Shown here: in pieces, positions 15,301 to 30,208 of the stretch
How positions within the stretch are numbered: the stretch's first letter is position 1
Layout: the number at the start of each line of letters is the position of its first letter
Program-made: the position numbers and the translations under genes
Assembly: GCA_041650935.1 (NCBI GenBank)
Contig: JBAZKH010000004.1
Span: 5,040 to 69,039 of the forward strand
Source: Candidatus Omnitrophota bacterium
Lineage (GTDB): Bacteria > Omnitrophota > Gorgyraeia > 2-01-FULL-45-10
Length of the DNA stretch: 64,000 nt
Reading direction: 5' to 3'
The notes under the pieces: generated by a model
The model's input: only the letters and a program-made list of their open reading frames with translations
Told to the model about the DNA's origin: nothing
Databases searched by the model: none

Positions 15301-16947
15301 AACCATTTGATCCATTATTTGGATATGGTCGCGACGTCGGGAAAAGTAAACGTTTCAAATGATAATACGTCCCGCCGCGGGTTGGGCGACGACGGATATT
15401 TTACACCCCGGGGTGTAATTCTCCTGCCCGCGGTCTTAGCGCTTGTTGCGGCTGTAAAAGAGGCCGGCTTTAAGTTTCCAAGTTTTAACGTGGATATCAG
15501 CCAGGTGCCGGCCGGCTATATAGTTACCTATGCTGTAGCAGGCGCTATTATTCTGTACTTTGCCGTCAAGATTTTAAGAGAGGCATATAAGATCATCGTT
15601 ACCGCGTTAAAGATTGCGGTAGGGTTAGCCCTGGTTTACGGTATCCTTGCCTACGCGGTCCCGTATATCACCGCGCACTGGCCGCAGATTACCGCTTCTT
15701 TCGGCGGACTGATGGAATGGCTCAACTCTTTAAAGAAGACCGGCGCCGCCGCGTTGTGGCTCGCGCCGGCCGGGCTCGGGGCAGCTATCTTGGGCTCAAT
15801 AATCGATATGCGAAGTTTTATGAATGGTGAAGAGGCGGGCCCCGCCCCAAGGAAACTCCTTATCGGGACGACGTCCGAAAAGATATACGATGAACTGAAG
15901 CCCAGAGTAGGCAGTGCCGGATTCCCGCAAGATATAGTTGCTGATGTGGTCTTGCTCAAAGATACGGTGTCTGCGGCTAAAGAATTGTCCGCCCGGGCCA
16001 GGGAGCAAAACCTCACAGGTGTCCTGGTCGACGACACGATCTCCATCGAGAATACAAGGACGGAACAATTCAAGCAAGACCTGGCCGAGGTTAAATTAAC
16101 AAGGGATTACGATATCGTATTCCGGGCGACGACGATAGATAATAGCGTCCGCGACCGGATAGACGATGTTATTAAAGCGCTCCTGCCGAGGCTCGGTAAG
16201 GTCGACTTCGACAAGGCAATACGCGAATATCAGAAGAAACATGCGGCTAAAGGCTTCAGCCTGGAAGAGGCCGAGAGGCTGGCTACATTGCGCAGGCTCG
16301 TTACGGAGCGCAGGGTCGATGAAAGGGTGAAGGATGCATATTACACCCCGGTCCCGGCCATCGATAGGTCTAGCCTGGCCAAACCGGTAGTCATAGTTAC
16401 AAGCGAGGATACGGCCCTCTCCGACCCGTACACCGTCGAGAACATGGACGAGGCCGCAAAACAGGGCATAGTAAGCTACATTGTCGGCGGAGACGATATA
16501 AAGAACGCGGAAGATATGCTCTTATTCTTACGCGCGGGCGGTTATGCGGGAGATGGCAGTATGGCCAGGTTCGTGAACAAGCACGACTACGCCTCCTATA
16601 GCGCGATGATGGATGCGATTGCGGGCCAGACTGGCACTTCCAGAGAATTCATAGGCGTGCGGGCCGCTAAGGGCGAACTTATGAAAGATGGTGAAAAGCC
16701 GGGCGCCGAAAAGTTCCTCGAGATCGAAGAGATAGAAGTGAATAATACCAGGGTCCTTGCCGCCATACACTCATACTCGGTGCTGGTCAACCTGGTTGTG
16801 GACGGGGCGGGCAAACTACCTCCGGGCGTTACCGATGAGCGTCAAGTTAGCGGTAAGTTCAGGTTTAACCCGATCCTGCCGATAGGCATAGATAAGGAGA
16901 TTGCAACATACAGGCACGCGATGCTCTTACTCAGCAGCGCCGCATAA
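1..16947 (+). CDS. Giant multidomain polytopic membrane protein, 5'-partial (at least 5,647 aa). It has M50-like HExxH modules, a GH144/DUF3131-like domain, a PEP-utilising-enzyme module, a GNAT-like domain and Gly/Pro tandem repeats.
   Basis: The reading frame is open from nt 1 (no stop before the first Met at 22) to TAA at 16945-16947. Many long hydrophobic segments alternate with recognisable soluble-domain motifs. A REP hairpin follows the stop. Confidence 0.8.
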   Translation, partial: LNWAARSLGFMLLSTPAHEFGHSMLARDARTERHIFLGYVKDAEGNAAKYGGILGNLLTASLFGIITAVSICFSGQMNGLHYYALFIITANLFSILSELIGIPFGRGDLSVTKTAPAESESAPATQPAETITPLARTGWLLSRAAIALSIGGLIAYPEILYGYLPIFIQGWLIIALLAGVSKIKDKFILKAGISFLGVVMITGMFQDIAVNGVLPIMAVESACKFAGALLARKIFTKEPLKKTIGTATKWSLGPAVTDQYYYNLVLYPFLQASFSKAHFGVWAPLLMASFDTALATLILHMWLSVAVGTILVENKDIFKEMAKARSVAKKVYPYNFLFWFTALLTGWIILYAFSLDASWLKVMLMPFKIVWIGVISEVMRRKFETEESAPPAGTKTVAGAGRVVRAVLIMVTFGIASLLFNTGTALANKANQQETPAATVEEVMDLSAKVYPGRDVEEKVRAMDAEKLTNTRDRLRKMWEKKLAEEAEKKQDVLIKASDPAVQAQFRKIAGENAVYFSPGVGYDTTTGLVYNHIKVDNGIIVSRMGFFNGTDIGLCLDSLKDSVKGNINIPGVTPVKAAQMIRKTLNTLLKIQRDPRLSHRGLFYWYQFNGENINVDPGHPIASSVDNGKLSLSLAAVAGGLLKEKGCRDIVRMAREIINEQNKPFRNADGRIVNGAWAELYDPVKGLLRAGVDSNSSFLTYWIDRKTNESRSAVAWAILNSGGQVPISAFTNMEAPVWPEPYETLGGKSVSRVLSWKGCKFEFADTSLWIDEGALSSAYREAALEFLTVMIDNNIGREKLPAFKSAAFGPDGTYRTYGTHSLAETEVRFNNQGEVCDGVASPHTIGLARLISPDVAATLMARLIANYPQLNTPFGLLDGIDTNGNVANTICGQNQGMLVIGLQGHENSKDVAAYLQSTGQYNLLKQIYAVQEITGLHSNTTPEDALRLIIAAEKRPHIAIPDKKQSPARHAPAPKPAAGYNLLADYALSSSSENMGGKAIISWHGGVLTVKHNPADGAGHSYAANNLKKPYILGEGEAIEIRGRGSFTLKLEGSTTILRKVDLDGTNGVFTVSDLPAGMSIGIMVIDNVKPGPPVIIKEIRVINTRGSVKTSLFKPAIPGLKIMRAAAGLGIFFAAPALLPAAEVAVRNTPGASLPLFAGLDPAVYVACGVIGFVALLLIGCMSAGMMLDKSRRKESHQAQFNRLGLQEAKKPTAHGTPGLPKSPAGSAKPHEETAGVALKAPVAPPARAPETVSVPPAEASVEHHTAREKTEEELREEGKALINGYFATINGHLAYLEGLRNKCAEKNTGAAWKEYGEEYQGVKMLIDGIREDIKKAYRAISREKSSIEKSIVKFLTEANVKLKNLAPGHVTGAGDQRFGTTGMVPAVWKKVIPVLRNWGLPARVIAAMGGFEEIFFSSIVVGCPGVAGKLIGGAFGHVGIGTYTGLAIGSLLSAWLFRRAHAKGVYHYDAGGELTRGPPSARAITILGVALRLAYFIPALLLPLNVPPLLLWAPFFTAAIHAIYNSILAPGLGLALGIANMRHAINSNEKSVQGKINRVIEKILAIPTIQQHGDEAAKFLNGFADSMPLLHKGEASEERLYEQMLIVYQYYRSAPKEIKFNNPYDEDGRSFGHTDIIFVGENRNNLESEVMKIIKKNCAVESKWAYVYGDTIIIVFEAIKKKGVYGTLNRQGMRAIRRDVENLINVGGERRKIAIEGTASDVHKIIIGAAHKLDLIHSVDVYGSNLAHPWDKPYIAGLKIKNEVRYFISTMLEIIAAFAAAGGPESTEAQILSSLIEPSITLIENRGKRCEICFKSCIDEEIRRYPGKRDELRRLKARVMKEFKKRNNVKKDDVEKEIQLFNRAVEGVVRELDEMIWRFKRGTTGSSKSIASAYEVVKGAFLEYDPASCEKIKSWIRGTDGPANLRGKNAITIVEHQARNYKKCYDKTPAKHHEFKSTMYEMYTMWNMLLNQLHRVRALDGGIDAVSLKDRVRAEQKRLQYAIIQLRSEIRASASRLYLEEFIDDVKRRAPRIIRTGGVTAMSAVEDLAGAAERLITGDKDVSETERESRRSGVRLVVMRLAELIEGDQLGPIEVKGKEDIVLFVEAMDPSRVWQIKRNWGDRVKTIVCPVGSSNSHWVVLARQLGFNVIAAARYRARKRLPMNPYDIETGQPVLVDTARGLVTINPKEETLNSYAERKKMLGSRERFYLSKAKEDACTKDGARLNVLADVGNLDQIPEVISRGAEGVGLYRTEWLYDGARRLTEDEMTKIFVKASEKLAAGKPLTLRLLDMREDKLPSTLAPSSYGGCDYYFSDQEGTRVAIEELRAMMKAYAKSRKKNIEILFPMVSSDDIPMIKKIVEGQKRMLINEGIPVEALNGIKIGGMIETPEAARDAERLFEYFDFIKVGMNDFYTESKPGTDRESDKDDEYFTTLNPVILGRLVHVAKAARIARKSLGFCGMWASSPRFALFLLRLTRIYPDISITSEIEELPRLKAIIRRSTVRECLQLFRPVRSIADAKTPVSSSDLLDKMARKKEKQVEARILQSAEYRRWKVEGAEAKLQAGAWTGLAERFGIRNYSPFIHAPFLEELAKVCLPLYIAGSVSWAVLGIAAFVFVALHIFNEPLPFAPRNIDPKEAAGGLVAERPVRIMASSGEVFDFRYQKVPKEGKAAFTLTAHDSAGRAVGFIDVVRDAYGQNAVYGPFSHDLHSGLKSDYGLYVRDEYRNGGIATGLLILAMAIAQSRGNDTFILGCPNIDQNISMEILVNKLSGQGVIFYKSSMGKYCVSLVGIRDKLPIALPYVVIGDKDKKFIERPWVILSWFARVFTAPLVAASAGIAIPVFGPSLFDKLGLVYMSGFSSNASGATILAMLVHLGINALAALVNKTSGAKSGYAAWAGKFYGRSGSPSDDPLSVRIKQYVKGEPFDELAQYIAHKTAPANKFAGAIRRFTSRFSSRITPDEKAHLERFASMLYIMGRNGAGLSEIFRSGISADTRAALQQNRRILALIDNYNDIVKEMVKVPAGPLEPAWSMEHVADIFARLHDEGSTGAAEKKYIRKMRKELGEFLIASPSFNSYLGNLKSRLMEAVMEERGWGKAVACFEDLIRSDTARHCLNDLDLLLAAKSDKYIMPYDIETIVKLVMIGLADRDGMIICHTAEAALNAILEEAYNPKYSNSKKRDLILNTVRNTKVMIDGREETVLSLVTRNAVEGNVLIRAEALETLKLLGEPGPKGGTGPEPLGPSGFGSGAGISAKSLLPIFIALTLFVSMGAKGDVPIWELLWNIAKSYPGPMLLFIAAVLFILASLIKEPDATINKAKTAKPADVSKPPEVPSSEPAVAYEPGTLNDKSGRISVMVFIFGVLLMAGSWICVKYGYTGAAGLLTPLAMSGPHMAIPVVFAIIFSAIGFSSGGFVSFLSLAASSAAKIFLCTAVKNNYYHNILAMMPGSIFNYSDMAAYAIGAIVIYLAYPDKRSIRGAFIFPLLIIAAILAGFEIMRPGSPVPAWHGFSWETIKSSPLQNLVPKGFSAAMLTGFAFIGMAAQFNGIGKKRPASSPDSPDGDPHRRLRRDYIIYGAVFHALSFAAFGYLSVLLVSSSSTVLLRSIAAPGVLYFLAQFASTMSFVAYGIGLLPPMEKFFISTHEKMRRWFVSEPLAWTVQYIISPFWVLPYMVISFGKRAGAIEAAADNERRISELEAEEVVEREFPGESVPVKETLKRFLTAYKMLVRGHSTINKVKFIYAGNKESPGNIKRVIDAVTQSLARESGIIMDQPEIERAIELSKAALALEYITKGSPVLIKANKSFSDKAEKLIIRAHKALGVISILLIFSHAFLANITITSIGFLGLAFAIGGFAAIMAVRFAPDGLIRKKGLELLSASDIPDLYRRAIIDKVIAMLADGRLPRKSYEDSVINSLSRVAKTDSDTESIRQYLDTRLMTEGNIFTRRRLEEYVTLTVNVGPKPLGPSGLGFGAGPKPLGPSGLGFGAGPKPLGPSGLGLRPEPDGSGSGAGPEPLGPSDLGFGAGMIPALRWIFQRTQNTRLKYLGMTERGQAVWEQAVFTAITNLLSWTGWYGGTIGAIFISWSVFYASHLGSVGGVRAPPASAIFRVYLLNVLSLSAITPFGGITGLVLNILQFAVVSAIHYRWNIGYLASTTKEPPAELKVPADLKRDIMISFASVSMFFGILGIINLGGFVSIGMLIGGIAVMVFYILKRESDEERDLVNKRMELMIPHELVGRMHSMLHDYYSKIAPVGGNSFLQPVILVDKECKDRVIKRLRFDLDIYDEMERHINSTWRSPRAVREAALLPVEARHKKWRETIIAQLGLKYEARERRGLSITGIYDVAGDVDEEYIRMIGDLALDYRVNPILVTTDEKVADRLIRNMRASGVVKFDLRVGSPEPVENYEAPNMLEMLSPAIRGKLGRLLSERFRPDHWHPAAGVIFVDDADVEPVMKALEEELKYRVPFNVIRGNLLYSSDDRTKAGKEKRRRYYRELQDELGVNGDFHFEPVALIITRGMDEGYAAMLMGSDANKEFAPVLIVPSGARAAKGFEKLGSSNRVDFTFYMDLRSEKSRQKDPLPENSIAAHAVKAWEEPFACAGFAGGLPFGSSAAAVPHLAPEYRYIGGAAGFFASAPFLIAQQGTLGLALAVIIPVIMFLPGWGFHELGHIINRDSARNSSDEMYGGPLASAILFAITSAAAIFFAFSPVQVPVIFTKVPLAAILTSAAASYFVHIFADENALIIKLRSSGLVKRADNFYKRGAAEFSNGNYIGAMLLFDKSICGYTRIVEKFSFVPTGCKGNILSMFRMMKSIIRSIEINEPGDGEKSQYRDIWRGCDHRMTNCLKLIDSHSKISAPAREISILEFLADDEDGSVQLAPRYIFGGIVLGIAVAAPLLFLELGWWPLALDLAVITSIASFTVGWVAHELGHWIGGDFGRTNVKEMRAGPAASLALFVITSAAAIISFLSHARISLIYLDVPLYSLFASAAANYLVHIFADGGALFSARGKVSPEGLLEEAIGHYDGGVKAFNEDDYLGAMMAFDKAILIYSEALKRFSIVPPGCERILRNMLRKMEEIEKFISGRKWDEQIYEPYLKRWIHCHNHLIHYLDMVATSGKVNVSNDNTSRRGLGDDGYFTPRGVILLPAVLALVAAVKEAGFKFPSFNVDISQVPAGYIVTYAVAGAIILYFAVKILREAYKIIVTALKIAVGLALVYGILAYAVPYITAHWPQITASFGGLMEWLNSLKKTGAAALWLAPAGLGAAILGSIIDMRSFMNGEEAGPAPRKLLIGTTSEKIYDELKPRVGSAGFPQDIVADVVLLKDTVSAAKELSARAREQNLTGVLVDDTISIENTRTEQFKQDLAEVKLTRDYDIVFRATTIDNSVRDRIDDVIKALLPRLGKVDFDKAIREYQKKHAAKGFSLEEAERLATLRRLVTERRVDERVKDAYYTPVPAIDRSSLAKPVVIVTSEDTALSDPYTVENMDEAAKQGIVSYIVGGDDIKNAEDMLLFLRAGGYAGDGSMARFVNKHDYASYSAMMDAIAGQTGTSREFIGVRAAKGELMKDGEKPGAEKFLEIEEIEVNNTRVLAAIHSYSVLVNLVVDGAGKLPPGVTDERQVSGKFRFNPILPIGIDKEIATYRHAMLLLSSAA
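1500..2800 (+). other. DUF3131/GH144-like (alpha/alpha)6 glucanase-like domain inside ORF1.
   Basis: The segment ...SSVDNGKLSLSLAAVAGGLL... through ...TPFGLLDGIDTNGNVANTICGQNQGMLVIGL... parallels the stand-alone GH144-like proteins in this window (STVDTAILVAGALTAGEYF ... YGFRDSIN ... GIGEAMILLPIEN). Confidence 0.4.
6270..7500 (+). other. PEP-utilising-enzyme module: a phosphohistidine swivel domain followed by a PEP-binding TIM-barrel domain.
   Basis: CPVGSSNSHWVVLARQLGFNVIAAA (His codon at 6418-6420) ends ...VDTARGLVTINP, matching the GGRTSHAAIIARELGIP...vdG..G.v.vnP pattern. Downstream, AEGVGLYRTEWLY, IKIGGMIETPEAA, VGMNDFYTE and GFCGMWASSP match the Enzyme I / PEP synthase TIM-barrel motifs. 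Confidence 0.6.
7960..8350 (+). other. GNAT N-acetyltransferase-like domain.
   Basis: YVRDEYRNGGIATGLLILAMAIAQSRG (8180-8212) has the RxxGxA acetyl-CoA motif A in a typical beta-alpha context. Confidence 0.45.
11875..12069 (+). repeat. In-frame 42-nt tandem repeat array of about four units, encoding GPKPLGPSGLGFGA.
   Basis: Units 11875-11916 and 11917-11958 are nucleotide-identical. Unit 3 (11959-12000) is identical for 33 nt and then diverges. After a 27-nt insert, unit 4 (12028-12069) has 4 substitutions. A diverged solitary copy (EPLGPSGFGSGAG) lies at about 9715-9765. Confidence 0.9.
13940..14470 (+). other. M50-like HELGH membrane module, copy 2, first unit of an internal tandem duplication.
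   Basis: WGFHELGHIINRD (HELGH at 13987-14001) is followed by ...GPLASAILFAITSAAAIFFAF..., ...SYFVHIFADENAL and a helical ...NYIGAMLLFDKSICGYTRIVEKFSFVPTGC... tail. Confidence 0.45.
14720..15250 (+). other. M50-like HELGH membrane module, copy 3, second unit of the tandem duplication.
   Basis: VAHELGHWIGGD (HELGH at 14770-14784) is followed by ...GPAASLALFVITSAAAIISF..., ...NYLVHIFADGGAL (an xDGG-type motif) and ...DYLGAMMAFDKAILIYSEALKRFSIVPPGC..., collinear with copy 2. Confidence 0.45.
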
Positions 16948-16953: not shown

Positions 16954-16983
16954 TTCTTGCCGGGTGAATTCACCCGGCAAGAA
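16954..16983. repeat. REP family A copy 1: a perfect palindrome ttcttgccgggtgaattcacccggcaagaa.
   Basis: It lies 7 nt after the ORF1 stop. The same 24-nt core recurs at 33879 and 34585, both flanking a RAYT gene. Confidence 0.7.
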
Positions 16984-17010
16984 AGTGGTAATTGCGTAAA
17001 ATGTAAAAAA

Positions 17011-17087
17011 CACTACTGCGCGCCACCGCGGTAGTGGGTTAACTTTGCTCTTGCAGCCCCGCCAAGCGGTTGCAGAGCAAAGTTAAC
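17011..17087 (+). other. Two further stem-loops in the ORF1-ORF2 intergenic region.
   Basis: The first has cactac...gtagtg arms (17011-17036). The second has a 13-bp stem gttaactttgctc / gagcaaagttaac (17038-17050 / 17075-17087) enclosing an inner ccgc...gcgg hairpin. Confidence 0.5.
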
Positions 17088-17090
17088 CAT

Positions 17091-17112
17091 ATTTCCACCC
17101 CGGGGTGGAAAT
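17091..17112. repeat. REP family B copy 1: palindrome atttccaccccggggtggaaat.
   Basis: It is a perfect 22-nt palindrome. The same core recurs immediately after the ORF2 stop at 26675-26692. Confidence 0.6.
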
Positions 17113-17141
17113 TAAAATATAAAATAGTTAGTTTTTTTGTA

Positions 17142-17169
17142 TTGACATACCAGCTTAATATGGTAAACT
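17142..17169 (+). promoter_or_regulatory. σ70-like promoter for ORF2.
   Basis: -35 TTGACA (17142-17147), a 16-nt spacer, then extended -10 TGgTAAACT (17161-17169). RBS AAAGGAG at 17208-17214, 8 nt before the ATG at 17223. Confidence 0.4.
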
Positions 17170-17222
17170 TATTACACTATTTATTAATGTTAAAAAAGTT
17201 AGATATTAAAGGAGATAGAACT

Positions 17223-20200
17223 ATGATGCGAAAATTAATTTCGGTTCTAGTAATCCAGTCTTTCCTTCTCTCTAACATCGCGTTCGCGGAAACCCTTCAA
17301 ACCAAACCCAATACGCCGCAAAATACCCAAACTCTTACAAATGCTTCGAGTATCGCAATCGAAAAAGAGTACGGGCTCATCAAGTCCAGGTTTATGGGCA
17401 ATTCCAACAAACTGATAGTAAATATCCAGGACGCCCATTGTAACTATGAGGCACAGACCAATATAGTCCGTATCTTAGAGACGCTTATAAAGAATCATAA
17501 TCTCAGCCTGATATCGGTCGAAGGCGCGGACGGCATCATCGATACGACATGGTTCAAGGCTTTCCCGGATGAAGAGGTGCGCAAAGAGGTCGCGACCTAC
17601 TTCATGAAGAAAGGCGAGATCACCGGTCCGGAATTCCTATCCATAACCCAGAACTATGCGATAAAATTATTCGGCGCGGAAGATAGAGCCGCCTATATAC
17701 AGAATTTAAACGCGTTTACATCCAGTTATCCGCTCAAGGCCGATACCGAAAAGTACTATAATTCGATAAAAGGCGCCCTCAATAAATTAAAAGGTTTCAT
17801 ATATTCTAACGAACTGCGGGCGATGGACGCCAAAGCCGCGGATTACGACTCAAAGAAGATGCAATTTAACGATTATATACGCTTTTTACAGGAGATGGCC
17901 GAGAGGCGTAAGCTTAACGTAAGAAGCTACGAGAACTTCTTCAGGCTCGTAAGCGTACTCGGCTACGAGAAGAAGATAGACTTCAACGTAACCGACAGGG
18001 AAAGAAGCGCCCTCATCGACGAACTCTCCAAGCTCCTGGATAAGGACGGCTTGAGCGACATGGTGGCGCAGTCGATAGCGTTCAAGTCGGGCAAGATATC
18101 GTCCGTGGACTTTTATGCCTATCTAAAGAAATGCACTATCGATAAGAATATCGACCTCGCTAAGAAGTACCCCAACCTCTACAACTATATAATATATAAC
18201 TCCGTATATTCCAAGATCGATAACGAACGGCTCTTCACCGAGATAAAGACGGTAGAGACCGATATAAAGGAACGGCTCTTCACGAACGACGACCAGAGGA
18301 CGCTCGATAAACTGTCGCGCCATATCGATATCCTGATCGGCATGGTGAATATAAAACTATTGAACGGCGATTTTAACTATTACCAGACGCACAAGGATGA
18401 CTTTACGCACGACTCTTTCGCCGGCTTTATAAAGAAGAAGGGCGAGCAGTACGGCCTTGCCTATGCCCTCGAGCCTCCGAGCGATGCGGTCGCGAAGGCT
18501 ATGCCGAAGCTCGAAGACTTCTACATGATCGCCACAAAGCGCGATAAGGCGCTGGTCGAGAATACCTTAAAGGAGATGGACAGGGAGAAACAGTCGATAG
18601 CGGTGCTCGTTACGGGCGGTTTCCATTCCGAAGGCATGTCCAGACTGCTCGAGAAGAGCGGCGTATCATATATAGTAGTATGCCCGACCATCACAAAGGA
18701 TGTACCATCGCCTTATATCCAGATACTTACGAACCAGAGAACGCCAATAGAAGATATATTGACGGCCCCGGACACAGCGAAACAGCGCATGCTTGCTCCG
18801 ATAAGCCGGGCACAGCTCGTTACGATGGAGCCCAAGAAACTCAAAGTATTCTTAAGGGCCTCTCCCGTAGAAGACGCCAAGACAAAAGACCTCATAGAAA
18901 GAGTCATAGACAATAATGTGGAGTTCAGGGATGACTGGTTCTTTGCCATTATGAGGGATTGGCTCAGGAAGACAGTGGCTGTTAATCCCAACCATCGCTT
19001 AACGCGCGAAAAGGCGGCTATGCTGGAGGCATACATGATGGGTATGCAGCTCAGCCTCGAAAATTGTCTGCATGAAACATGGCCGCGCCAGTCCGATGCC
19101 AAGATTACCGCCCAGGCGAAAAAGATGCTGGAAGCGATAGCGGCAACGCCCGGGTTCAATGATGCGTTTGAGCGGGCATTCACTGCCGTTGCGCCCAAAG
19201 CCGAACTCGATATGATACGAGCAAGTGCTAAGCCGGCAGGCAAAATATCTCTTGCCGAAGCCTACTCCTCACCCGAATTATTCAATGCATACATATTACA
19301 GGCGATGAAAGAGTTGACGAAAGTTATCCCTGAGCTCCCGCGTATTATGAGCGAATACTCTGCATGGAGAACAGCCGAAGTAGAGCCGCTAGAGGCACAA
19401 CTCGCAGATATGCAAAAGCGCTTTGATGGCATGGAATCCGATCCGCAAGCCGACGCTACAGCCGTTGCCGCGCTCAAGGAAGAGATAAGGGTTCTCACCA
19501 AGAAGATCGGGGATATGATAAAGAAGAAGGTCGAGCCTGTAGATGATCTTATTTCCGAAAAGTATAATCAGTCTGTCGCCGAGTCATATGTCGGTTCTCT
19601 CGAGAATATATCGACCGATAACTTTTTTAAGGATATACCATTACTCGAAGACTTCATGAAATCACCGGAATTTCCTCAATATCTTGAGCAGGCACGCGCA
19701 TTGACCGCCAGTACCGAATGCGGTTATATTGACACATTCGCCGGCGCGGCCTCGCGTCTGTTTGGTGAAGGCCAGAAAGCCGACCCTACCAAATCGCACG
19801 CCGCAGCCGATGTCTATGATATTGCCGACAGGATGGGTAAAAAGATACCCGCGGATGGCATCAAGGACCTTAGCGTAATCACACGTATAGCCGTCCAGAG
19901 ATGGCTTAATATAGAGGAAGAGCTAAAGAAAAAATACGAGCGAGCCGGTATAAAAAAGACGGATAAACAAATTATTAAAGAACGGCAAAAGATCATACGG
20001 AACAGGCCGTGGACTATTATAATAAACGACGAAAGCGGTTTTCCGCTTATGCAGGAGATAATAAAGAATAATTTTTACGGTCATAATCCCGAACACGTGC
20101 TTTTTGTGGTCCAACCTACATTCCACGGATATGGTTTTAATGCATCGGGAAAACCTATATGCATGACGAATACCAAGCCTACCCCTGTCGGGCATGGCTC

Positions 20201-23200
20201 CGGCACTATGCAGGTCGTCGCGAATAACAGGGCTTTCTGGATAGACGCCAAAGGCGCTATTCATAATATTAAGGAAGACGCGGAGTCTTATCTGCGCAAA
20301 AGAACGGGAGTGAAGTACTGGATACAGGGCCGCGTAAATGATTTGATAGTAATGGGGTATTCGTCATCACCCCATCCGACCCTTTCGCCGTATGATATCG
20401 ACATGGGCATCATGGCCCTTGCGCTCAAGATGATGGGAAATCCCGACAGGCTCGATGAGGGCAAGAACGCGGTATTGGAGCAGACCCGTACGGATCCGAG
20501 GATAAAGGGCGGGACGCCTCTGGCGCTTAATGGAAAACATTTCTTGATGGAAAAAGTCGCAATGAATGCCAAGACCAGAAAAGTCGTTATAGGCCCCAAT
20601 CCACAGAACAGGTTCTATATCTATTATAAATGGATCGCCCTGCAGGAGATGAAGAAGCAGGGGCTCCCGGTCTATTTCAGGTTCCGGGACGGATTTATAT
20701 ATCCGGAGACGGTTACCGGCGACCTCACAATGCTGAAAAATATGAACGCAGGTTTCGCGATGGAGGCTTCACGTCAACTCGACGATTTTAAGAATCCGGA
20801 GACGGCGGACCAGGCCGTTGAGGCCAGTGATAGGCAGGATAAAAGGCCCGGCTTCGCAAGATGCATCGATGAGTTAAGGGCGTCCCAGAAAGATACCAGG
20901 ATCACCGGTATAGAATTGGTCCCAGATATAGCAAGGCACGTCGGCGCCGGCCCCGCCGGGACTCAAGCCCAGGGCGGGACAGGCGCGATACGCGCTAACG
21001 GTGAAGGCGTCTCGGCCGAGGATCATGGCGTCAGGACGAGCATCGCAGGCATACCTGCTGAGAAAAGGCTCTATGCCGAACGGACCCTGAACGGAATAAT
21101 TAGGAAGTTGATAGATTTTAATAGGCAGGCCGCTTCGCTTTTGCCCTATCATAATGTAGATAGTTATTCTGACCGGACGATACCCGAACTAGCGAAGGAA
21201 AACAATGTAGGCGTTAAAGGGGCCGATCTTGATAAGGTAAAAGAGTTGCAAGGAAAAGTGGAAACCAAATTCCCGGGGTTGAATTTTGTCATACTGAGAG
21301 GGCTTAAAGAAGAACTTGTAAAAAATAATATTACGCCGGACCTTTACTTCCATTACGGCCATATTAGAAGCTCCATATATGTGGATGAGGTTGACTTCCT
21401 GTATCTCTTATCGCTTCCGGACGGTTTAGATCTTATGATGGAGGCAATATGCCATGAAGTAGAGCATATAAAAAATCCGCAGCGTAACGGCGAGACGGAT
21501 GTCGAATACGAAGCGAGGATCGAGGGTATCGCATTGACAAAGAACGTCCGCGCGGCGCTTAACGAAAGAGACCTTGTCAATAATGTGCAGAAATTATCAA
21601 GAGTAGGGAATGGTATAGTGGCAGGTGCCGGTCTTACGGACATACATGGACGAAAATTCACACCCGACGGGCGTTTCTTTACCGCCGACGGCGAGATGAC
21701 GGAAGGCCTGAAAAAGTTTATGGACAGCCTCGACGAAGCGTCCGTCCAGCAGGCGCTCGAAGCGGGCATTATGTATTACGATATCCGTTCACCGTTCTGG
21801 AGAGACGGCGCCGACAAAGGGCATCCCGAATTTGCTGTTGCTTTTGCCTTTGCTTTCGCGAAAAAACTTCAGCAGAAGACCGGAAAAAAAGACGGCATAG
21901 TCCTTCACATAGGAGTCGATTGCTATAATAAACACTTTGAAGCGGCCCAGATTTTTGTGGATGCCATATTGCGCACCGGTATATGCGATAACGGAGGCGG
22001 TATCTATTACTGGGGCGTGATAAACGGCGGAGATATGCGTAATTATGCCCAACTCTATGATGCGGTAAACGGCACCGGCGGTAACTGGGCATTTTTTACC
22101 ATGAGTCATGTTAAAAATGACTTTTTAGGCGCAAAACTGGGTATCGATTCCCAGGTCTACTGCGGTCCTGAAGTGCGGCATTGCGAAGGCGTCACAAGCG
22201 GCACGTTGACCGATGCTATTGAGGAAAGAGATTTTGCTCCAATTAAGCATACAAAACCGGAAGGGAACATTGTGACCATTTCCAAGTTCCTGGATAATAA
22301 TATACAGGTAGCCGCGGATATGATCCGGGCAACTTCTGCCCCGAAGAATACTCCTACGAAAGAACTTCTGAAAGGCGCCAAGCTTTGTGTCGACATGAAT
22401 GGAAGCCCGATAGGTAAGAATCTCGTTGATATACTTAATGCTTTGGGCGCGGATGTAATGGTCGATAACGGAGTGCTTGAGCCTGATTATAAGACTGACT
22501 ATATAATCGATCCCAATGAGCATAAAAAAGATGCGATGAAGCGCCTGCGGGCTAAAGCCAAAGAGATCGGCCGTGTCATATTAGCAGTTGATCCCGACGG
22601 TGACAGAGGTTCTATAGTAGCCGTGGGGCCGGACGGTAACCCCGTATCGCTAAGCGGCGCGAAACTCTTGCTCTTAAGTATGGAACAACTCGCCATCAGC
22701 TATTATAAGCAGGGAAAGACGCTCACTATCATAAACGATATGAGGACTGGAGTGAGCGCGCGTGATCTGGCGAATGCGATCAATGATAAATATAGGAAGG
22801 AACTGGGGGGTAAGGATTTAGTCAGGGTCATTCCCCACGAGGCAGGATATCCTTTCTTTATGAGAGGCATGGCCGCGCTTCCTGCGGACCTGGCCGTAGA
22901 AAATACGACACATGCCTTTACTAACCCCATGACCAATACAAACTGGGGAGCGCCAAAAGATTATAAGCGGCCCGATGGAAAAGGATATCAGGGCGGGGAC
23001 AATGCCGCGCTTTATCTCATATCTTTATTGGGCGCCATGGTCCATCAGTGGGATGGTAGAAACCCGGTTGAACAGCTTGACTGGATAGAGAAGAATTACA
23101 ACCTCAGGCCGACGGTCGATGAGGAAAGAAAGCCTGCACTGGCAAAAGAAGACGATAGATTTAAATACATGGTTGCTGACAGGATGAAAGAGCTGGCCGA

Positions 23201-26200
23201 TCAATGGTTTGCGGGTGATGAACGGTTCCTAGTCAATTTTAACGACCCTAAAGTAACGGTGGTAAGCGGAGTCCATATAACCAATAGCATTACGGGGGCC
23301 ATGATGCTGGTGAGGTTCTCCAATACAGGAGCGACCTTTACAATATCCGGCGAAGCATATAAGGGCGTGGAAGGCCACGAGACAGATGAGCTTTATGAAA
23401 TGTTGGGGTTAGGGCAGCTTATCATTAAAACGGCAGTGGAGCAATTACAGGCGGAAGGCAATAATTTTACATTTGATCTGGCAGATGCCTCCGACCTGGC
23501 AGGAAAATTTGACGTAAACAGGTACTTCCCGCAAGGGTTACCCGGCGTGGCGAATGGACTCGCCGCTTCGGATCTTGAGAAAGCACTCGGTAAGTCTGAC
23601 AAAGTAGTTTTGCTCGGCAATGCCGAGGTAGCTACTTATGCGGCACGGTGCGGCACAGATAAGGCTATGGCCATTCCACACGGGTTCTTTAATATTAACC
23701 CTCAAGCCGCGGCGCCGAAAGATCTAACCATCAGTGTAGTGGGCTCGGTGACCACATGGTCGGATATGAGGTGGGTAAAAGACGTTGTAGGCTTGGTGAA
23801 GGAGATTAGAAGGCGGTCTGTTGAAACAAAAGCTCTTGGTTATGTGGCCGGTAAATTTGTTCCGTATAAGAATCCGGACGGAACCGTCGTAGATGAATTG
23901 AGAGAGTTAAGAACGAACCCGGACTGCATTATATTGAAAGCAGAAGATCTGGAGAGTGCATATAGGCAAACAGGCGGATTTACCGATCTAGCTTCATTTA
24001 AAACATGGCTATGGGAACGATCGGACGGAGGCAAAATTGTAATTGTCGACGGTGAAATAAATAAGGAAGAAGTGAAAAAGTTGCAGGCGTCTCTGGTTGA
24101 TTTCAATACTCAGATGTACAGGGAGTTATTGAATGGTTTCGAGCCTAAGGTAGAATATTCCGGCACTCTTCACGAGAATCCGGGTAGCTCGATTCCCGTG
24201 GTTTTTGAATCTCCTTCTATGACGGATGTCGCGTCAGAAGGTCTCAATATGGTAACTGTTAAGTTTGGACCCGACGGCAAGGTAGATTTTTCAGGGGCGG
24301 CGCAACGTATTATCGAATTGATAGGAAACCCTGCAATGTATAACGAACAACGCGCCCAGAGTTTAGCGGCGGCGCAGAAGTTGACAATGGCAGACGTCGC
24401 TTCCAGATATTTGGATGTTGCAAGAAAAGCGGCCTCAAAGAAGCCGGGCGAGGCCATACGTATCGCTATCGTTACGCCTATTTCTTTGAGAAACTACGGA
24501 GAAATATTGAATAACGGTTTTAGCGCATTAAACGCGGAAAACATAGTCGTGGATCTACTTGTGCCAAACGACAGTGAGGCTATGGGTGCGTTTGTTGCAC
24601 GAGTAAAAGACGGCCATTACGATGTCAATATACTACAGCTGCATGGAGCGCACACTGAAAAGCCTGTAGCTTTTGAGGATTTTGGAGATACTAAGAATGT
24701 CCTCCTCGTTCACAGGCCGGAAGAGGTTTTGGCGAGGGAGAAGACGGGCGTGACTCCGGATCGGGCTACTCGCGATAAAACGACGGATGCGTCGCGCTCA
24801 GACGGCACGATCGACAAGAACCAGGCGAAGATCGTAGACCTGTCAGGTTACGCGGGGCTCGACATAAAACTGACGAGCGGGACCGGGGAGCTGATTTTAG
24901 GCGGGAATATAGTATCCGAGCCGAAATGGGTAAGACCGCTCGCGGCCGCCGGCAACAGCATAATGAATCCGGGTGCCATAACAAGCGTGAATCGCGATAG
25001 GGTCGTATACTACGGGTATAGGAACGTGGCGGCCCGGCAGAGCGCCTCGGCTGTAGATCATAACCACCTGAGGTTCGATATAACGGTGCTTCAGCCCGGC
25101 GTTGTAGCGGCGGGCGCCGACGAAGAATTCATAATGACGAAAGGGCACATCCATCCCAGCCGCCGGGTAGTGTTTACCGATACGACTTCGCAGCCTGCTC
25201 CGGTCTGGTATCCCGAATTCTACGAAGTATGGAGCGGATACGCGCTATATGTCCAGCAGGGCAGGAATCCCGAAACCGGCGAGTTCGAAGTCGAGGTTAC
25301 ATTCGCTAAGCCCGGCGACAAGGTACTGCTCAAGCCCGGTTATTCGCACAGGACGGTCAATATAGGTAATGAGCCGCTTGTTATGGCGAACTGGATAGCC
25401 GAAGACGTCGGAGGGAAGAACGCGAGAGTAGAAGGCGAAGAGAGGTACGATGTAAGTAAAAAACCCGCGGAAACTGTCGCGCCTGCAGTGAGGCCGGACT
25501 TCTCGGAGATAGAGCGGAAGAATGGATATGCTTATTGGGTAGAACGTACTCCGGAAGGCGGCATCCGTTTCGAATTTAATCCGAATTATTCACCCGCCGA
25601 GGACCTTGGTTACGGGCCGCGGCGCGCGCAGCTTCGTTACGCGACGCCTGCCGCCGCAATACCGGCGCTCGGCCTTTCGAATAGCGAGCCGATGTATAAG
25701 CAAGCCGCTAATAGCGCGCTTAGCAGTTTCTTAAGAGGCGGCATGTCGGCTCCGGAAAGACGGGCCGAGTATAATGAATTGGCGGCTGCGGCATCTAATA
25801 AGGAAACAAAGGCAACGTTTGAAAGCAAGATACGGCAAGCTTTACCGGATGTTACGGTTACGGCTCCTCCGTCGAAGGGTGGGGCAAAAGCCGTGGAAAG
25901 CGATACTGCGGCAATTACGGATGACATAGATCCATTCGTAATTAAAACAGTGGAAGATGCTACGGGCGGCAAGCCTCTTACAGGGCCTAATGCCATAGAG
26001 ATCATGGCCAGCATTAAGCATGAAGGCGCGCTTTTGTGGTCGATTCTAGAGGATATCAGTAAAAAGAAGTTTGCCGGGAAAAAGGTCAAGCAGGTCGTCC
26101 TTTTGAGGGACACCGACCTTTATCCTACAAGCCTGGCACATTCGGGCGAAGATGCCGTGAAAAAGTATCTTGGGGATACGCTAATAGAAGTGTCCGGCAG

Positions 26201-26666
26201 AGGAAGCAGCCTCCTGGATAATGCGCGTAGGCAGCTGACTCAGCTTATTGACGTGGAGGGTAAAACCCCGGGTGAGGATTTTGTAGTGGTTACCTTGACG
26301 GGAAATAATACCTTGGCCGAGATTTCCGGGGTACAAGCGGAAAACCTGACTCCGGAGGTCTTAAACGGTAATGAAAAGATCAAAGATCTCGGCAAAATAT
26401 TAAGCATCCAGACGACGGAAGGGCATATACTGCCGCCGATAATCGGTTTATATGCCGTCGCATTGCGTCTTGCCAACGATACAGGTGAAGAGAATATATT
26501 GCGGTGCCTTAATAGCATCGCGTGGAATGGCCGGCCCAACCAGCCATTTACCGTAGCTGACCTGGCTCGAGGCGTACTTGTAATATTGCCGAGGGTCGGC
26601 CCGGTCAACTACACCGAGGTCGTAGAGGCATTTAAAGCGGCGGAAGCGGTACTGCGGGCATTATAA
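17223..26666 (+). CDS. Giant secreted or membrane-anchored multidomain protein (3,147 aa). Domain order: signal peptide, TraB/GumN-like, UDP-sugar pyrophosphorylase-like, phosphohexomutase-like, cupin-type phosphoglucose-isomerase-like.
   Basis: Start ATG with a good RBS. N-terminus MMRKLISVLVIQSFLLSNIAFA|ETLQ is a Sec-type signal peptide. Single ORF to TAA at 26664-26666. A REP and an intrinsic terminator follow. Confidence 0.85.
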   Translation: MMRKLISVLVIQSFLLSNIAFAETLQTKPNTPQNTQTLTNASSIAIEKEYGLIKSRFMGNSNKLIVNIQDAHCNYEAQTNIVRILETLIKNHNLSLISVEGADGIIDTTWFKAFPDEEVRKEVATYFMKKGEITGPEFLSITQNYAIKLFGAEDRAAYIQNLNAFTSSYPLKADTEKYYNSIKGALNKLKGFIYSNELRAMDAKAADYDSKKMQFNDYIRFLQEMAERRKLNVRSYENFFRLVSVLGYEKKIDFNVTDRERSALIDELSKLLDKDGLSDMVAQSIAFKSGKISSVDFYAYLKKCTIDKNIDLAKKYPNLYNYIIYNSVYSKIDNERLFTEIKTVETDIKERLFTNDDQRTLDKLSRHIDILIGMVNIKLLNGDFNYYQTHKDDFTHDSFAGFIKKKGEQYGLAYALEPPSDAVAKAMPKLEDFYMIATKRDKALVENTLKEMDREKQSIAVLVTGGFHSEGMSRLLEKSGVSYIVVCPTITKDVPSPYIQILTNQRTPIEDILTAPDTAKQRMLAPISRAQLVTMEPKKLKVFLRASPVEDAKTKDLIERVIDNNVEFRDDWFFAIMRDWLRKTVAVNPNHRLTREKAAMLEAYMMGMQLSLENCLHETWPRQSDAKITAQAKKMLEAIAATPGFNDAFERAFTAVAPKAELDMIRASAKPAGKISLAEAYSSPELFNAYILQAMKELTKVIPELPRIMSEYSAWRTAEVEPLEAQLADMQKRFDGMESDPQADATAVAALKEEIRVLTKKIGDMIKKKVEPVDDLISEKYNQSVAESYVGSLENISTDNFFKDIPLLEDFMKSPEFPQYLEQARALTASTECGYIDTFAGAASRLFGEGQKADPTKSHAAADVYDIADRMGKKIPADGIKDLSVITRIAVQRWLNIEEELKKKYERAGIKKTDKQIIKERQKIIRNRPWTIIINDESGFPLMQEIIKNNFYGHNPEHVLFVVQPTFHGYGFNASGKPICMTNTKPTPVGHGSGTMQVVANNRAFWIDAKGAIHNIKEDAESYLRKRTGVKYWIQGRVNDLIVMGYSSSPHPTLSPYDIDMGIMALALKMMGNPDRLDEGKNAVLEQTRTDPRIKGGTPLALNGKHFLMEKVAMNAKTRKVVIGPNPQNRFYIYYKWIALQEMKKQGLPVYFRFRDGFIYPETVTGDLTMLKNMNAGFAMEASRQLDDFKNPETADQAVEASDRQDKRPGFARCIDELRASQKDTRITGIELVPDIARHVGAGPAGTQAQGGTGAIRANGEGVSAEDHGVRTSIAGIPAEKRLYAERTLNGIIRKLIDFNRQAASLLPYHNVDSYSDRTIPELAKENNVGVKGADLDKVKELQGKVETKFPGLNFVILRGLKEELVKNNITPDLYFHYGHIRSSIYVDEVDFLYLLSLPDGLDLMMEAICHEVEHIKNPQRNGETDVEYEARIEGIALTKNVRAALNERDLVNNVQKLSRVGNGIVAGAGLTDIHGRKFTPDGRFFTADGEMTEGLKKFMDSLDEASVQQALEAGIMYYDIRSPFWRDGADKGHPEFAVAFAFAFAKKLQQKTGKKDGIVLHIGVDCYNKHFEAAQIFVDAILRTGICDNGGGIYYWGVINGGDMRNYAQLYDAVNGTGGNWAFFTMSHVKNDFLGAKLGIDSQVYCGPEVRHCEGVTSGTLTDAIEERDFAPIKHTKPEGNIVTISKFLDNNIQVAADMIRATSAPKNTPTKELLKGAKLCVDMNGSPIGKNLVDILNALGADVMVDNGVLEPDYKTDYIIDPNEHKKDAMKRLRAKAKEIGRVILAVDPDGDRGSIVAVGPDGNPVSLSGAKLLLLSMEQLAISYYKQGKTLTIINDMRTGVSARDLANAINDKYRKELGGKDLVRVIPHEAGYPFFMRGMAALPADLAVENTTHAFTNPMTNTNWGAPKDYKRPDGKGYQGGDNAALYLISLLGAMVHQWDGRNPVEQLDWIEKNYNLRPTVDEERKPALAKEDDRFKYMVADRMKELADQWFAGDERFLVNFNDPKVTVVSGVHITNSITGAMMLVRFSNTGATFTISGEAYKGVEGHETDELYEMLGLGQLIIKTAVEQLQAEGNNFTFDLADASDLAGKFDVNRYFPQGLPGVANGLAASDLEKALGKSDKVVLLGNAEVATYAARCGTDKAMAIPHGFFNINPQAAAPKDLTISVVGSVTTWSDMRWVKDVVGLVKEIRRRSVETKALGYVAGKFVPYKNPDGTVVDELRELRTNPDCIILKAEDLESAYRQTGGFTDLASFKTWLWERSDGGKIVIVDGEINKEEVKKLQASLVDFNTQMYRELLNGFEPKVEYSGTLHENPGSSIPVVFESPSMTDVASEGLNMVTVKFGPDGKVDFSGAAQRIIELIGNPAMYNEQRAQSLAAAQKLTMADVASRYLDVARKAASKKPGEAIRIAIVTPISLRNYGEILNNGFSALNAENIVVDLLVPNDSEAMGAFVARVKDGHYDVNILQLHGAHTEKPVAFEDFGDTKNVLLVHRPEEVLAREKTGVTPDRATRDKTTDASRSDGTIDKNQAKIVDLSGYAGLDIKLTSGTGELILGGNIVSEPKWVRPLAAAGNSIMNPGAITSVNRDRVVYYGYRNVAARQSASAVDHNHLRFDITVLQPGVVAAGADEEFIMTKGHIHPSRRVVFTDTTSQPAPVWYPEFYEVWSGYALYVQQGRNPETGEFEVEVTFAKPGDKVLLKPGYSHRTVNIGNEPLVMANWIAEDVGGKNARVEGEERYDVSKKPAETVAPAVRPDFSEIERKNGYAYWVERTPEGGIRFEFNPNYSPAEDLGYGPRRAQLRYATPAAAIPALGLSNSEPMYKQAANSALSSFLRGGMSAPERRAEYNELAAAASNKETKATFESKIRQALPDVTVTAPPSKGGAKAVESDTAAITDDIDPFVIKTVEDATGGKPLTGPNAIEIMASIKHEGALLWSILEDISKKKFAGKKVKQVVLLRDTDLYPTSLAHSGEDAVKKYLGDTLIEVSGRGSSLLDNARRQLTQLIDVEGKTPGEDFVVVTLTGNNTLAEISGVQAENLTPEVLNGNEKIKDLGKILSIQTTEGHILPPIIGLYAVALRLANDTGEENILRCLNSIAWNGRPNQPFTVADLARGVLVILPRVGPVNYTEVVEAFKAAEAVLRAL
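17390..18700 (+). other. TraB/GumN (Tiki-like) family domain.
   Basis: N-terminal ...KLIVNIQDAHCNYEAQTNIVRIL...ISVEG and C-terminal ...SIAVLVTGGFHSEGMSRLLEKSG match the family hallmarks (LVGTAHVS... and ...VVGAGHLxG). Confidence 0.45.
19650..20700 (+). other. UDP-sugar pyrophosphorylase (UDPGP family)-like region.
   Basis: FAGAASRLFG (19737-19766) resembles the AGGQGTRLG nucleotide loop. PVGHGSG (20184-20204) resembles the P(P)GHGD motif of UGPase/UAP enzymes. Confidence 0.4.
21700..23350 (+). other. Alpha-D-phosphohexomutase (PGM/PMM)-like region.
   Basis: TMSHVKNDFLGAKL (Ser-His at 22104-22109) resembles the TASHNPxxxNGxK phosphoserine loop. AVDPDGDRGSIV (22591-22608) matches the metal-binding DxDGDR loop. 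Confidence 0.5.
25000..25450 (+). other. Cupin-type phosphoglucose isomerase-like signature.
   Basis: TKGHIHP...PEFYEV (TxGHxH...ExY) and KPGYSHRTVNIGNEPL (Px3Hx3N) are the two cPGI signature motifs, found in order within one cupin-sized segment. Confidence 0.45.
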
Positions 26667-26798: not shown

Positions 26799-27485
26799 AT
26801 GGCGGCGGCATATAAAAGGAAGAATTATTTCATCAATAAACCCTTTCAGCTTAAGTATACCATTCTGATAGTGGGGGCGCTCCTGGCGGTGATGCTTGCG
26901 AGCGGTTTCGGCCTTTATATGGGGATGTGGGGCTCGATAATCGAGAACTTCTCGAAGTTCAAGGTCTCGCAGAGCCTGGAGAACGTGAACCGCATTACCG
27001 ATTACGAGGCGGCGCGCTACCGGAAGGGCGATTACCGTCTGGAGAAGATATTCCGCGAGGCGGAACTCTTGAGCGATCAGGAGCGGACGACACTTAAAGA
27101 GGCGCTCCGTTCCGTCAACAGGTCGCTCGTCCCGAAGATTGTTATCCTCACCGCGTTGATATTCCTCGCCGGGATATTCCTGTCGCACAAGATAGCCGGT
27201 CCCATGTACCGGATAGAGCGGTCGGCCGAGGCGATCCGGCACGGCGACCTGCGGGTGAATTTTAAGATAAGAAAGAATGACGAGATGAAGGATGCCGCCG
27301 CCGCGCTCGAAGAGATGGTCGAGACGCTACATAGCGATGTCAAGAGGATGAAGGCCGAGTCGATCGCCCTCGAAGAGAAGATGGATTCGCTTGTCAAAAT
27401 GGGCGCGATACCCGAAAACGAAATTACCCGCCTGAAAGAGATATTGAACAGCATAGACTCGGTGTTATCGAAATATAAGACGTGA
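26799..27485 (+). CDS. Small two-TM membrane protein with a HAMP domain and a coiled-coil tail, with no output domain.
   Basis: ATG at 26799 with an RBS. The track's longer start at 26703 lies inside the terminator hairpin. AGPMYRIERSAEAIRHGDLRVNFKIRKNDEMKDAAAALEEMVETL is a canonical HAMP domain. The stop overlaps the next gene's start. Confidence 0.6.
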   Translation: MAAAYKRKNYFINKPFQLKYTILIVGALLAVMLASGFGLYMGMWGSIIENFSKFKVSQSLENVNRITDYEAARYRKGDYRLEKIFREAELLSDQERTTLKEALRSVNRSLVPKIVILTALIFLAGIFLSHKIAGPMYRIERSAEAIRHGDLRVNFKIRKNDEMKDAAAALEEMVETLHSDVKRMKAESIALEEKMDSLVKMGAIPENEITRLKEILNSIDSVLSKYKT

Positions 27486-28726: not shown

Positions 28727-28742
28727 GATCCTGCCAGGAGGC

Positions 28743-28770: not shown

Positions 28771-28778
28771 TAATAAAA

Positions 28779-30191: not shown

Positions 30192-30208
30192 AAATTAGAG
30201 GGCCTTTT

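Follow-up and report, generated by a model that had tools for sequence, protein, structure and literature searches.

A leader-bearing 3,147-residue protein with divergent sugar-phosphate enzyme modules in Candidatus Omnitrophota, and the modular family around it

The 64,000-nucleotide stretch of Candidatus Omnitrophota DNA analysed here (assembly GCA_041650935.1, contig JBAZKH010000004.1, forward-strand positions 5,040 to 69,039; hereafter the window, in whose numbering all coordinates are given) contains a complete open reading frame (ORF) at 17223..26666 (+) which encodes a protein of 3,147 amino acids (aa), with an export-type leader in front of several modules of sugar metabolism. The frame is open from 17070 to 26666 (+), and the likely start is the ATG at 17223, 7 nt 3' of a ribosome-binding site (AGGAGA, 17210-17215, +). 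A promoter-like TTGACA-16-TAAACT sequence with a TG extension lies at 17142..17169 (+), found by consensus match alone (10 of 12 positions). The ORF is confirmed as a genuine gene, and NCBI holds a 100% identical protein, MFA5143646.1, annotated as a 'glucose-6-phosphate isomerase family protein' on a 178-kb contig of a Candidatus Omnitrophota metagenome-assembled genome (MAG). An artefact of assembly or gene calling was rejected, because the head and tail described below stand at opposite ends of dozens of relatives from many contigs and samples, and every domain junction recurs in other proteins.

From the N-terminus the protein consists of the leader, a head, a linker, a UDPGP-like nucleotidyltransferase, a module with an HExxH motif, a phosphohexomutase, a GT-B domain, a cupin-type phosphoglucose isomerase (PGI) and a C-terminal tail. 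Pfam and NCBIfam searches with the whole protein and eight sub-segments gave no match for the head, the UDPGP-like region, the HExxH module, the glycosyltransferase (GT) domain or the tail. An initial annotation, made from the sequence alone, had named a TraB/GumN-like domain, a UDP-sugar pyrophosphorylase, a phosphohexomutase and a cupin PGI behind a signal peptide; the GT-B domain (aa 2114-2515), the HExxH module (1252-1454) and the tail (2956-3147) are additions to that list. All the motifs it quoted are present, namely AGAASRLFG at aa 840, PVGHGSG at 988, TMSHV at 1626, DPDGDR at 1790, TKGHIH at 2639, PEFY at 2664 and PGYSHRTVN at 2705. A whole-protein search returned 251 relatives, of which 120 with lengths of 1.8-5.4 thousand amino acids (kaa) were listed, and the family counts given below refer to these listed relatives.

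The cupin-type PGI at aa 2571-2791 (24933..25595, +) was recognised by PF06560, with 72.8 bits for the whole protein and 79 bits for the segment against a cut-off of 20.7. The metal ligands H2642, H2644, E2665 and H2709 align with those of the Pyrococcus cupin-type PGI, and phmmer comparison with the Pyrococcus chains (E 2e-6) aligned the TKGHxH, E and HRTVNIG elements, so that the isomerase named in the initial annotation is borne out with its metal site intact. The enzyme of Pyrococcus furiosus (PDB 1x82, 2gc0) belongs to the same family and has the same His-His-Glu-His metal site and HRTVNIG sequence, but the present module carries an insertion of about 13 residues between GHxH and the Glu, and is a domain of a bacterial megaprotein whereas the Pyrococcus enzyme is a free protein of about 190 aa.

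A divergent α-D-phosphohexomutase of the phosphoglucomutase/phosphomannomutase type (PGM/PMM-like) occupies aa ~1480-2099 (21660..23519, +) and was identified by profile and motifs. An exhaustive HMMER search found its relatives in a small clade of proteins that stand alone, are 600-660 aa long and exceed the Pfam cut-offs for domains II and III. The protein itself reached 23.5-28.3 bits with PGM_PMM_II, under the cut-off of 29.3, and did not show the set of domains I-IV. The profile of the clade (alignment A3) matched the Pseudomonas aeruginosa PMM/PGM (PDB 1k35 and 4mrq) at E 6e-6, and in this alignment the catalytic Ser loop, the DxDxDR metal loop and the E..H sugar loop coincide with those of the enzyme. 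Invariant residues in A3 are S1628 (in T-M-S-H), D1790, D1792 and D1794-R1795, E1893..H1897, and R2031-x-S2033 of the phosphate loop. The mutase predicted earlier is thus supported by a profile match and intact catalytic motifs, though not by four Pfam PGM_PMM domains above cut-off. A reading of the modules as pseudoenzymes was rejected because the catalytic residues of the PGM and the cupin-type PGI are invariant.

The UDPGP-like module lies at aa 791-1260 (19593..21002, +). The Pfam UDPGP family (PF01704) matched neither this protein nor any of the 13 subfamily members scanned. When the UDPGP-like alignment was compared by hhalign with the Pfam-confirmed UDPGP modules of relatives, which occupy the same position behind the head, the probability was 94.3% (E 1e-7, 189-323 columns), against at most 1.3% for five unrelated control modules; the value of 45% over 15 columns for the adjacent HExxH module arises because both alignments contain the boundary GAIR segment. 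The aligned pairs include the AGAASRL/GG.GTRL loop, IINDES/IMTSD.T, PVGHGSG/GHGD and VLEQ..IKGG/VVEK..EKvG. In the nucleotide-binding loop, A-G-A-A-S-R-L stands in place of G-G-x-G-T-R, the Arg being kept and the Gly and Thr replaced, and this variant is conserved within the subfamily. Among PDB structures the subfamily profile found four UDP-GlcNAc pyrophosphorylases (UAP), weakly (E 0.2-0.6), and a search of 5.8 billion proteins was uninformative, as it returned nothing, not even the query's own protein. The region thus belongs to the UDPGP fold family, in which it is divergent and has an altered loop for nucleotide binding; its activity and nucleotide specificity are putative. The pyrophosphorylase of the initial annotation therefore stands as far as profile homology to the UDPGP family goes, while UDP-glucose formation, in view of the negative PF01704 result and the altered loop, is a putative step. 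Together the PF06560 scores, the PGM profile match and the hhalign result exclude chance resemblance as the source of the motifs.

The HExxH module (modC, aa 1252-1454, 20976..21584, +) has as invariant elements GAIR (1254-57), H1268, H1411-E-x-x-H1415 and then E1430. It occurs in 35 of the 120 relatives, at times in two copies, and recurs between enzyme modules. No Pfam match was found for it here or in the members scanned, and its profile (A5) had no significant match in the PDB; the HExxH+E pattern alone suggests that it may be a peptidase.

The domain at aa 2114-2515 (23562..24767, +) has the two-Rossmann GT-B fold and is GT4-like. It is related to stand-alone proteins of 385-480 aa that bear no Pfam annotation, and it is circularly permuted with respect to them: their N-terminal ~100 aa (IRIAIVTP...QLHGAH...HRPEE) correspond to aa 2412-2505, which follow the C-terminal ~300 aa. 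Glycos_transf_1 and Glyco_transf_4 of Pfam were found neither here nor in five stand-alone relatives, save for one at E 0.035, and a PDB profile search with the domain alignment (A4) gave nothing significant. An E-x7-E motif is absent from the domain, and the conserved KVEYSGTLH provides E-x6-E at best.

The head (aa ~46-553, 17358..18881, +) was modelled with AlphaFold2 from 22 family sequences (pLDDT 79.7) and has in the model an α/β core of the TIKI/TraB/ChaN/Ere type, interrupted by an all-helical insertion of ~300 aa (aa 155-455, 17685-18587). Among the structures that it resembles most are two effector domains, HopBA1 and RRSP. D70-x-H72, E100, R440-D441 and H468 within GGFH are invariant in the 22 sequences. 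RRSP has a 2His/2Glu catalytic motif with 28 residues between His and Glu (PMC6254334); D70-x-H72, E100 and H468 would correspond to it, as judged by motif and not by structural superposition, with Asp in place of the first Glu and an equal spacing of 28 residues from H72 to E100. Pfam TraB (PF01963) had no match in the head, where only ChaN (PF04187) appeared, weakly (E 0.099), and a PDB profile search with the head alignment (A1) found nothing significant. The TraB/GumN-like character claimed for this region is accordingly supported by one structural method and by the motif, and not by PF01963 or Foldseek. Compared with the superfamily of TIKI, TraB, PrgY, GumN, ChaN and erythromycin esterase, to which RRSP and HopBA1 belong, the head differs in having no Pfam TraB/GumN match, an Asp for the first Glu and the ~300-aa helical insertion, and in being fused to ~2,600 aa of sugar enzymes. 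The helical insertion drew α-pore-forming toxins (AhlB, ClyA, YaxA, SmhB) in Foldseek, with probability <0.2 and poor TM-scores, which is not significant. The head is followed by a linker (aa 554-790, 18882..19592, +) with no domain recognisable by Pfam, which the coverage plot shows to be conserved in the closest relatives alone.

The C-terminal tail (aa 2956-3147, 26088..26663, +), ending in ...AFKAAEAVLRAL, was defined by a hidden Markov model (HMM) that matches 69 of the 120 relatives, each time up to the very C-terminus; the remainder mostly finish with a related motif, P-x-x-P-[FY]-D...RR..[LM]WS[VL]. The tail had no PDB profile match (A6), and in Pfam just weak HAD-like hints in three of 12 members. 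The head was found by module HMM in all 120 relatives and by BLAST in 118 of the 119 others, and in 25 a UDPGP or UDPGP-like module comes right after it. Precomputed Pfam annotations of the relatives comprise PGM I-IV, UDPGP, cupin GPI, PGI, CofD, PFK, PGK, FBPase, transaldolase, NTP-transferase, ROK and epimerases. Every relative with a source name is from Omnitrophota. When one genome per species was scanned, 80 loci emerged, all with leader and head and all in Omnitrophota MAGs (some labelled 'uncultured Planctomycetia'; Planctomycetes-Verrucomicrobia-Chlamydiae group, PVC), mostly one per genome and sometimes two, with one on a complete 1.43-Mb chromosome. These sequence comparisons place the protein in an Omnitrophota-specific modular family, in which the leader, the TIKI/TraB head and the C-terminal tail are constant and the cassette between them varies.

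Two modules of the present cassette are rare or absent among the listed relatives: just one of the others has the PGM-like type, and the GT domain occurs in none of them. Both were therefore recruited from stand-alone genes. A stand-alone relative of the PGM module, P0127 (locus L082), lies in an operon with GalT, GT2-HAD, GT4, GT1, two ManC-like NTP-transferases, an epimerase and a ROK kinase, an arrangement with the same kinase, mutase, nucleotidyltransferase and transferase logic as is fused here. Nucleotide-sugar operons of this kind (ROK kinase, PGM/PMM, NTP-transferase, GT4/GT1) thus share with the protein both the enzymatic logic and the divergent PGM clade, whereas in the protein the steps are on one polypeptide, the cupin PGI is added and an export-type leader stands in front.

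The leader comprises aa 1-22 (MMRKLISVLVIQSFLLSNIAFA, followed by E; 17223..17288, +) and was defined by hydropathy and family columns as a basic n-region, a hydrophobic core and an A-x-A site. The sole hydrophobic segment of the protein is aa 5-23, followed by AFA before the E (Kyte-Doolittle peak 1.76), and there is no other segment resembling a transmembrane (TM) helix. Inspection and column counts over 119 members show the n-h-c organisation of a signal peptide: K or R stands at position 4 in 115 of the 119, Ser7 occurs in 92, Phe14 in 116 and Asn18 in 91, and small residues precede the predicted cleavage site, with A or G at -1 in 118 and a small residue at -3 in about 110. Beyond position 22 the column conservation vanishes. 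An N-terminal hydrophobic segment is present in 114 of the 120 relatives, and 97 have no further strongly hydrophobic stretch. The pattern is that predicted for a cleaved Sec signal peptide, yet residues inside the hydrophobic core are unusually fixed, and cleavage of the leader and export of the protein from the cytoplasm are in our view probable. A Tat signal was rejected, since the n-region is dibasic (RK, KK or KR) and not of the twin-arginine consensus, and a lipoprotein was rejected as no Cys follows the leader.

The leader can be written as [KR]-x2-3-[IV]-S-x-L-x2-[ST]-F-x2-[SY]-N-[IV]-x-F-A, with the predicted cleavage directly behind it. A near-identical leader (MKRINRAISVLILTSFIFNTAV...) begins a 3,017-aa ORF of the window (34990-44043, +) with ROK and alanine dehydrogenase/PNT domains and without head or tail, and the same leader stands on other large headless ORFs at L045 (position 3415, 2,100 aa), L029 (20193) and L084 (1629, 622 aa). 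Because it is common to headless giant ORFs, the leader suggests a lineage-specific sorting signal that serves several enzyme-fusion families.

Two preprints have described proteins of a similar kind. West-Roberts et al. (bioRxiv 10.1101/2023.11.21.568195) reported TIM, GPI, FBPase, PGM/PMM and aldolase domains in Archaeovorin-type giants predicted to be extracellular, and offered two explanations, namely that a TM segment was missed or that sugars are pre-processed outside the cell. The second (bioRxiv 10.64898/2026.06.07.730766) introduces a class termed 'multi-enzyme metabolic cluster' and a Pfam module of sugar metabolism, and gives a signal peptide or TM helices for 94% of long proteins. 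The Omnitrophota giants of both preprints come from the same phylum, have tiled metabolic Pfam domains (PGM/PMM, GPI, ROK, GT1) behind a signal peptide and pose the same paradox of localisation, so that the claim that such an architecture had not been described was too strong: both the kind of object and the topological paradox are already known. However, those giants have at least 10 or at least 30 kaa and mostly many TM helices and C39 or S8 peptidases, whereas the present protein has 3.1 kaa and the leader only. With 3,147 aa, one hydrophobic segment and no C39, S8 or dockerin Pfam domain, it is of neither the Archaeovorin nor the dockerin type and has the multi-enzyme principle alone in common with them. 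A TraB/TIKI head, a cupin PGI and UDPGP appear in neither preprint, and what is new is a family of 2-5 kaa with a head of predicted TIKI fold and a fixed tail, cupin PGI and UDPGP-type modules, a permuted GT-B domain and a common leader motif.

Upstream of the gene lies another giant ORF (22-16947, +) of at least 5,641 aa, cut by the start of the window. It begins with an HEFGH motif and contains a PEP-utilising enzyme core (PF02896, PF00391) at ORF aa ~1837-2495, with no Pfam match outside this core. In at least 15 related loci its last ~320 aa are conserved directly 5' of the head gene, which indicates that the two giant genes form a conserved pair. Clustering of neighbouring ORFs across the 80 loci revealed no conserved secretion system or other partner except this upstream gene, and the four giant ORFs of the window showed no BLAST similarity to one another and shared none of the family modules. 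The stretch between the upstream giant gene and the 3,147-aa ORF (16954-17112) contains three perfect palindromes (15+15 nt; 15+15 nt with a 22-nt loop; 11+11 nt) and an additional terminator-like hairpin at 17011-17036; Rfam gave no match anywhere in the window, these palindromes included.

Downstream follow, in order, genes for a HAMP protein, a GH144 enzyme, a protein of unassigned function, a solute-binding protein and a GH94 enzyme, an order that is syntenic in three related loci (L002, L009, L019), while a fourth (L020) has the first downstream gene alone in common. Farther on are a two-component system (response regulator and histidine kinase), a CBM11 protein, further GH144 genes, a 2,044-aa GH94 protein, ABC permeases and a ROK kinase. 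Pfam placed GH144-type genes (PF10091) at 27482, 47154 and 57517 and GH94 genes at 31495 and 51296, in agreement with the β-glucan-active neighbours named in the initial annotation. Leaders are present on the GH144 enzymes and the solute-binding (lipo)protein, and absent from the 790-aa GH94 enzyme and the ROK kinase. We take PF10091 to be the Pfam family of GH144 endo-β-1,2-glucanases, and on this assumption 27482-33867 together with 44047-63511 resembles a utilisation locus of the β-1,2-glucan type, with extracellular cleavage, uptake and cytoplasmic phosphorolysis to glucose-1-phosphate (G1P). The inventory of such a locus comprises three PF10091 genes, CBM11, a solute-binding lipoprotein, two ABC permeases, GH94, a ROK kinase and the response regulator/histidine kinase pair. 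In the 2,044-aa protein (51296-57430, +) a classic signal peptide is combined with a GH94 catalytic domain and two supersandwich domains of the same family, and no function is assigned to the N-terminal ~980 aa; as an exported-type phosphorylase it is a second topological oddity of the locus.

In the reading that we lean towards, the cassette would act as a hexose-phosphate hub. The cupin PGI would interconvert fructose-6-phosphate (F6P) and glucose-6-phosphate (G6P), the phosphohexomutase would interconvert G6P and G1P, and the UDPGP-family nucleotidyltransferase would form a nucleoside-diphosphate (NDP)-hexose from G1P and a nucleoside triphosphate (NTP). The retaining-type GT-B domain could then transfer from the NDP-hexose, or possibly from G1P, to yield an α-glycoside or α-glucan; from a retaining GT4-like GT-B fold α-linkages rather than β-linkages are expected. 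G1P could come from GH94 phosphorolysis, or from F6P via the cupin-type PGI and PGM, and would go to glycolysis or to activation and transfer. As the adjacent GH94 phosphorylase produces G1P, G1P is the likely entry point, from which the flow could run to F6P or to an NDP-sugar. The sequences show the identities of the domains, the intact catalytic motifs in PGI and PGM, the build of the family and a conserved leader. What the transferase modules catalyse, and with which nucleotide, is a prediction, and the head and the HExxH module may be hydrolases that serve in processing or anchoring.

Several observations weigh against this picture of an exported hub in a modular family. The nucleotidyltransferase fails in Pfam and has GAASR instead of GG.GTR in its loop, the GT domain is without a sequence-family match and canonical GT4 motifs are not evident in it, and Foldseek found no significant match in the PDB for the head model, so that the TIKI fold is unconfirmed there. 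The domain order also departs from the pathway order: the collinearity claimed in the initial annotation holds in reverse order alone (nucleotidyltransferase, PGM, PGI), with the GT domain interrupting. Finally, the NTP-requiring nucleotidyltransferase, the Leloir-type GT and the ATP-dependent PFK, PGK and ROK enzymes of relatives would have no substrate in a normal periplasm. The puzzle raised by the initial annotation, a signal peptide on nucleotide-dependent enzymes of cytoplasmic type, is therefore real, the Sec-type leader being confirmed by sequence, and the demand for nucleotides sets export at odds with the biochemistry, unless the protein is bound for another cell or its leader serves some other purpose.

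There would be three ways out. The protein might work in the cell envelope by chemistry free of nucleotides, which is conceivable because PGM and the cupin-type PGI need none and a GT-B enzyme can be a phosphorylase. It might remain in the cytoplasm in spite of the leader, which we hold to be rather doubtful. Or it might be transferred to a host cell, a special case of export to which we give a small chance.

The alternative that fares best is a megaenzyme of housekeeping or catabolism that stays on the cytoplasmic side, where it would be tethered through the N-terminal helix or its leader would go unused. G1P from GH94 would then pass through PGM and cupin PGI into glycolysis, the nucleotidyltransferase/GT branch would supply storage or envelope sugars, and fusion would provide co-localisation or economy in a small genome. 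Such a role agrees with the classic cytoplasmic, nucleotide-dependent nature of the modules here and in the listed relatives (PFK, PGK, ROK, NTP-transferases), with the lack of leaders on the 790-aa GH94 and the ROK kinase of the locus, with the one or two copies per genome across the phylum, as would suit a core function, and with the presence of stand-alone GPI in just 67 of 176 complete genomes (bioRxiv 10.64898/2026.06.07.730766). However, the leader follows the rules of Sec and signal peptidase I, with positive residues before the core and A or G at -1 in all but one of the 119 members; no second TM segment returns the chain, and the positive-inside rule puts its bulk outside. In addition, TIKI/TraB relatives are mostly extracytoplasmic or effector domains (PMC6254334). 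We regard a cytoplasmic megaenzyme as unlikely.

A metabolic polyprotein delivered to a host is less probable still. The leader and a secretion system would bring it into host or prey, where the TIKI head and the HExxH module would cut free enzymes that redirect the hexose phosphates of the host, by a logic like that of the MARTX toxins. Delivery into another cell would resolve the need for NTP and ATP, Omnitrophota have been inferred to be epibionts or predators (PMC10066038), and the structural matches of the head to HopBA1 and RRSP, the recurrence of the HExxH module between enzyme modules and the same leader on other giant enzyme fusions (34990 in the window; L045, L029, L084) would all fit. 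On the other hand, no secretion genes are conserved beside the family, Pfam detected no RTX repeats, cysteine protease domain (CPD) or translocation domain in the whole protein, processing is purely hypothetical, and TIKI-fold proteins also include ordinary periplasmic or cytoplasmic ones. MARTX toxins are likewise large polypeptides of secreted type with several independent enzyme modules, one of them of TIKI fold (RRSP), but the present protein lacks their RTX repeats and cysteine protease domain and its cargo consists of central-metabolism enzymes, not toxins; processing and delivery are hypothetical here. In the most far-reaching form of the idea, a dedicated leader would export blocks of nucleotide-dependent central-carbon enzymes as polyproteins that act outside the cytoplasm of the producer, most radically in host or prey, where the TIKI head and the HExxH module would release the enzymes and the hexose-phosphate pool of the victim would be rewired. 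Such 'metabolic effector polyproteins' are improbable to the same degree. The proposal of a secreted or anchored line from F6P to UDP-glucose that feeds nearby β-glucan synthases is very improbable, for although PGI, PGM and a UDPGP-family module are all present in a β-glucan-related neighbourhood, no β-glucan synthase (GT2 or GT84) was detected within the window, the neighbours are catabolic (GH144, GH94, ABC uptake), the fused transferase is a retaining-type GT-B and the nucleotide loop is altered.

Omnitrophota are a widespread phylum of ultra-small, probably host-dependent bacteria, whose reported long proteins of 10-147 kaa are unmanageable in experiments. The 3.1-kaa protein presents the same paradox at a workable size: the leader is its only membrane segment, and of its four recognisable enzymes two have fully conserved active sites. 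The family around it spans the phylum and combines fixed ends with exchangeable cargo. Whether such enzymes are exported, and where they work, becomes a question open to testing. If they stay inside, they would be a new hard-wiring of sugar metabolism in reduced genomes; if they leave, they would be a new kind of secreted metabolic machinery.

Two minor features of the window concern its more distant genes. The GH144 ORF at 47154-49460 overlaps a TPR ORF (49067-51235) by about 390 nt, and the true start of the TPR gene is probably farther downstream. An IS200/Y1-transposase-like gene at 33892-34554 (-), the only sizeable minus-strand gene of the region, lies between GH94 and the third giant gene, in the stretch of lowest GC content of the window (0.417 at 34001-36000).

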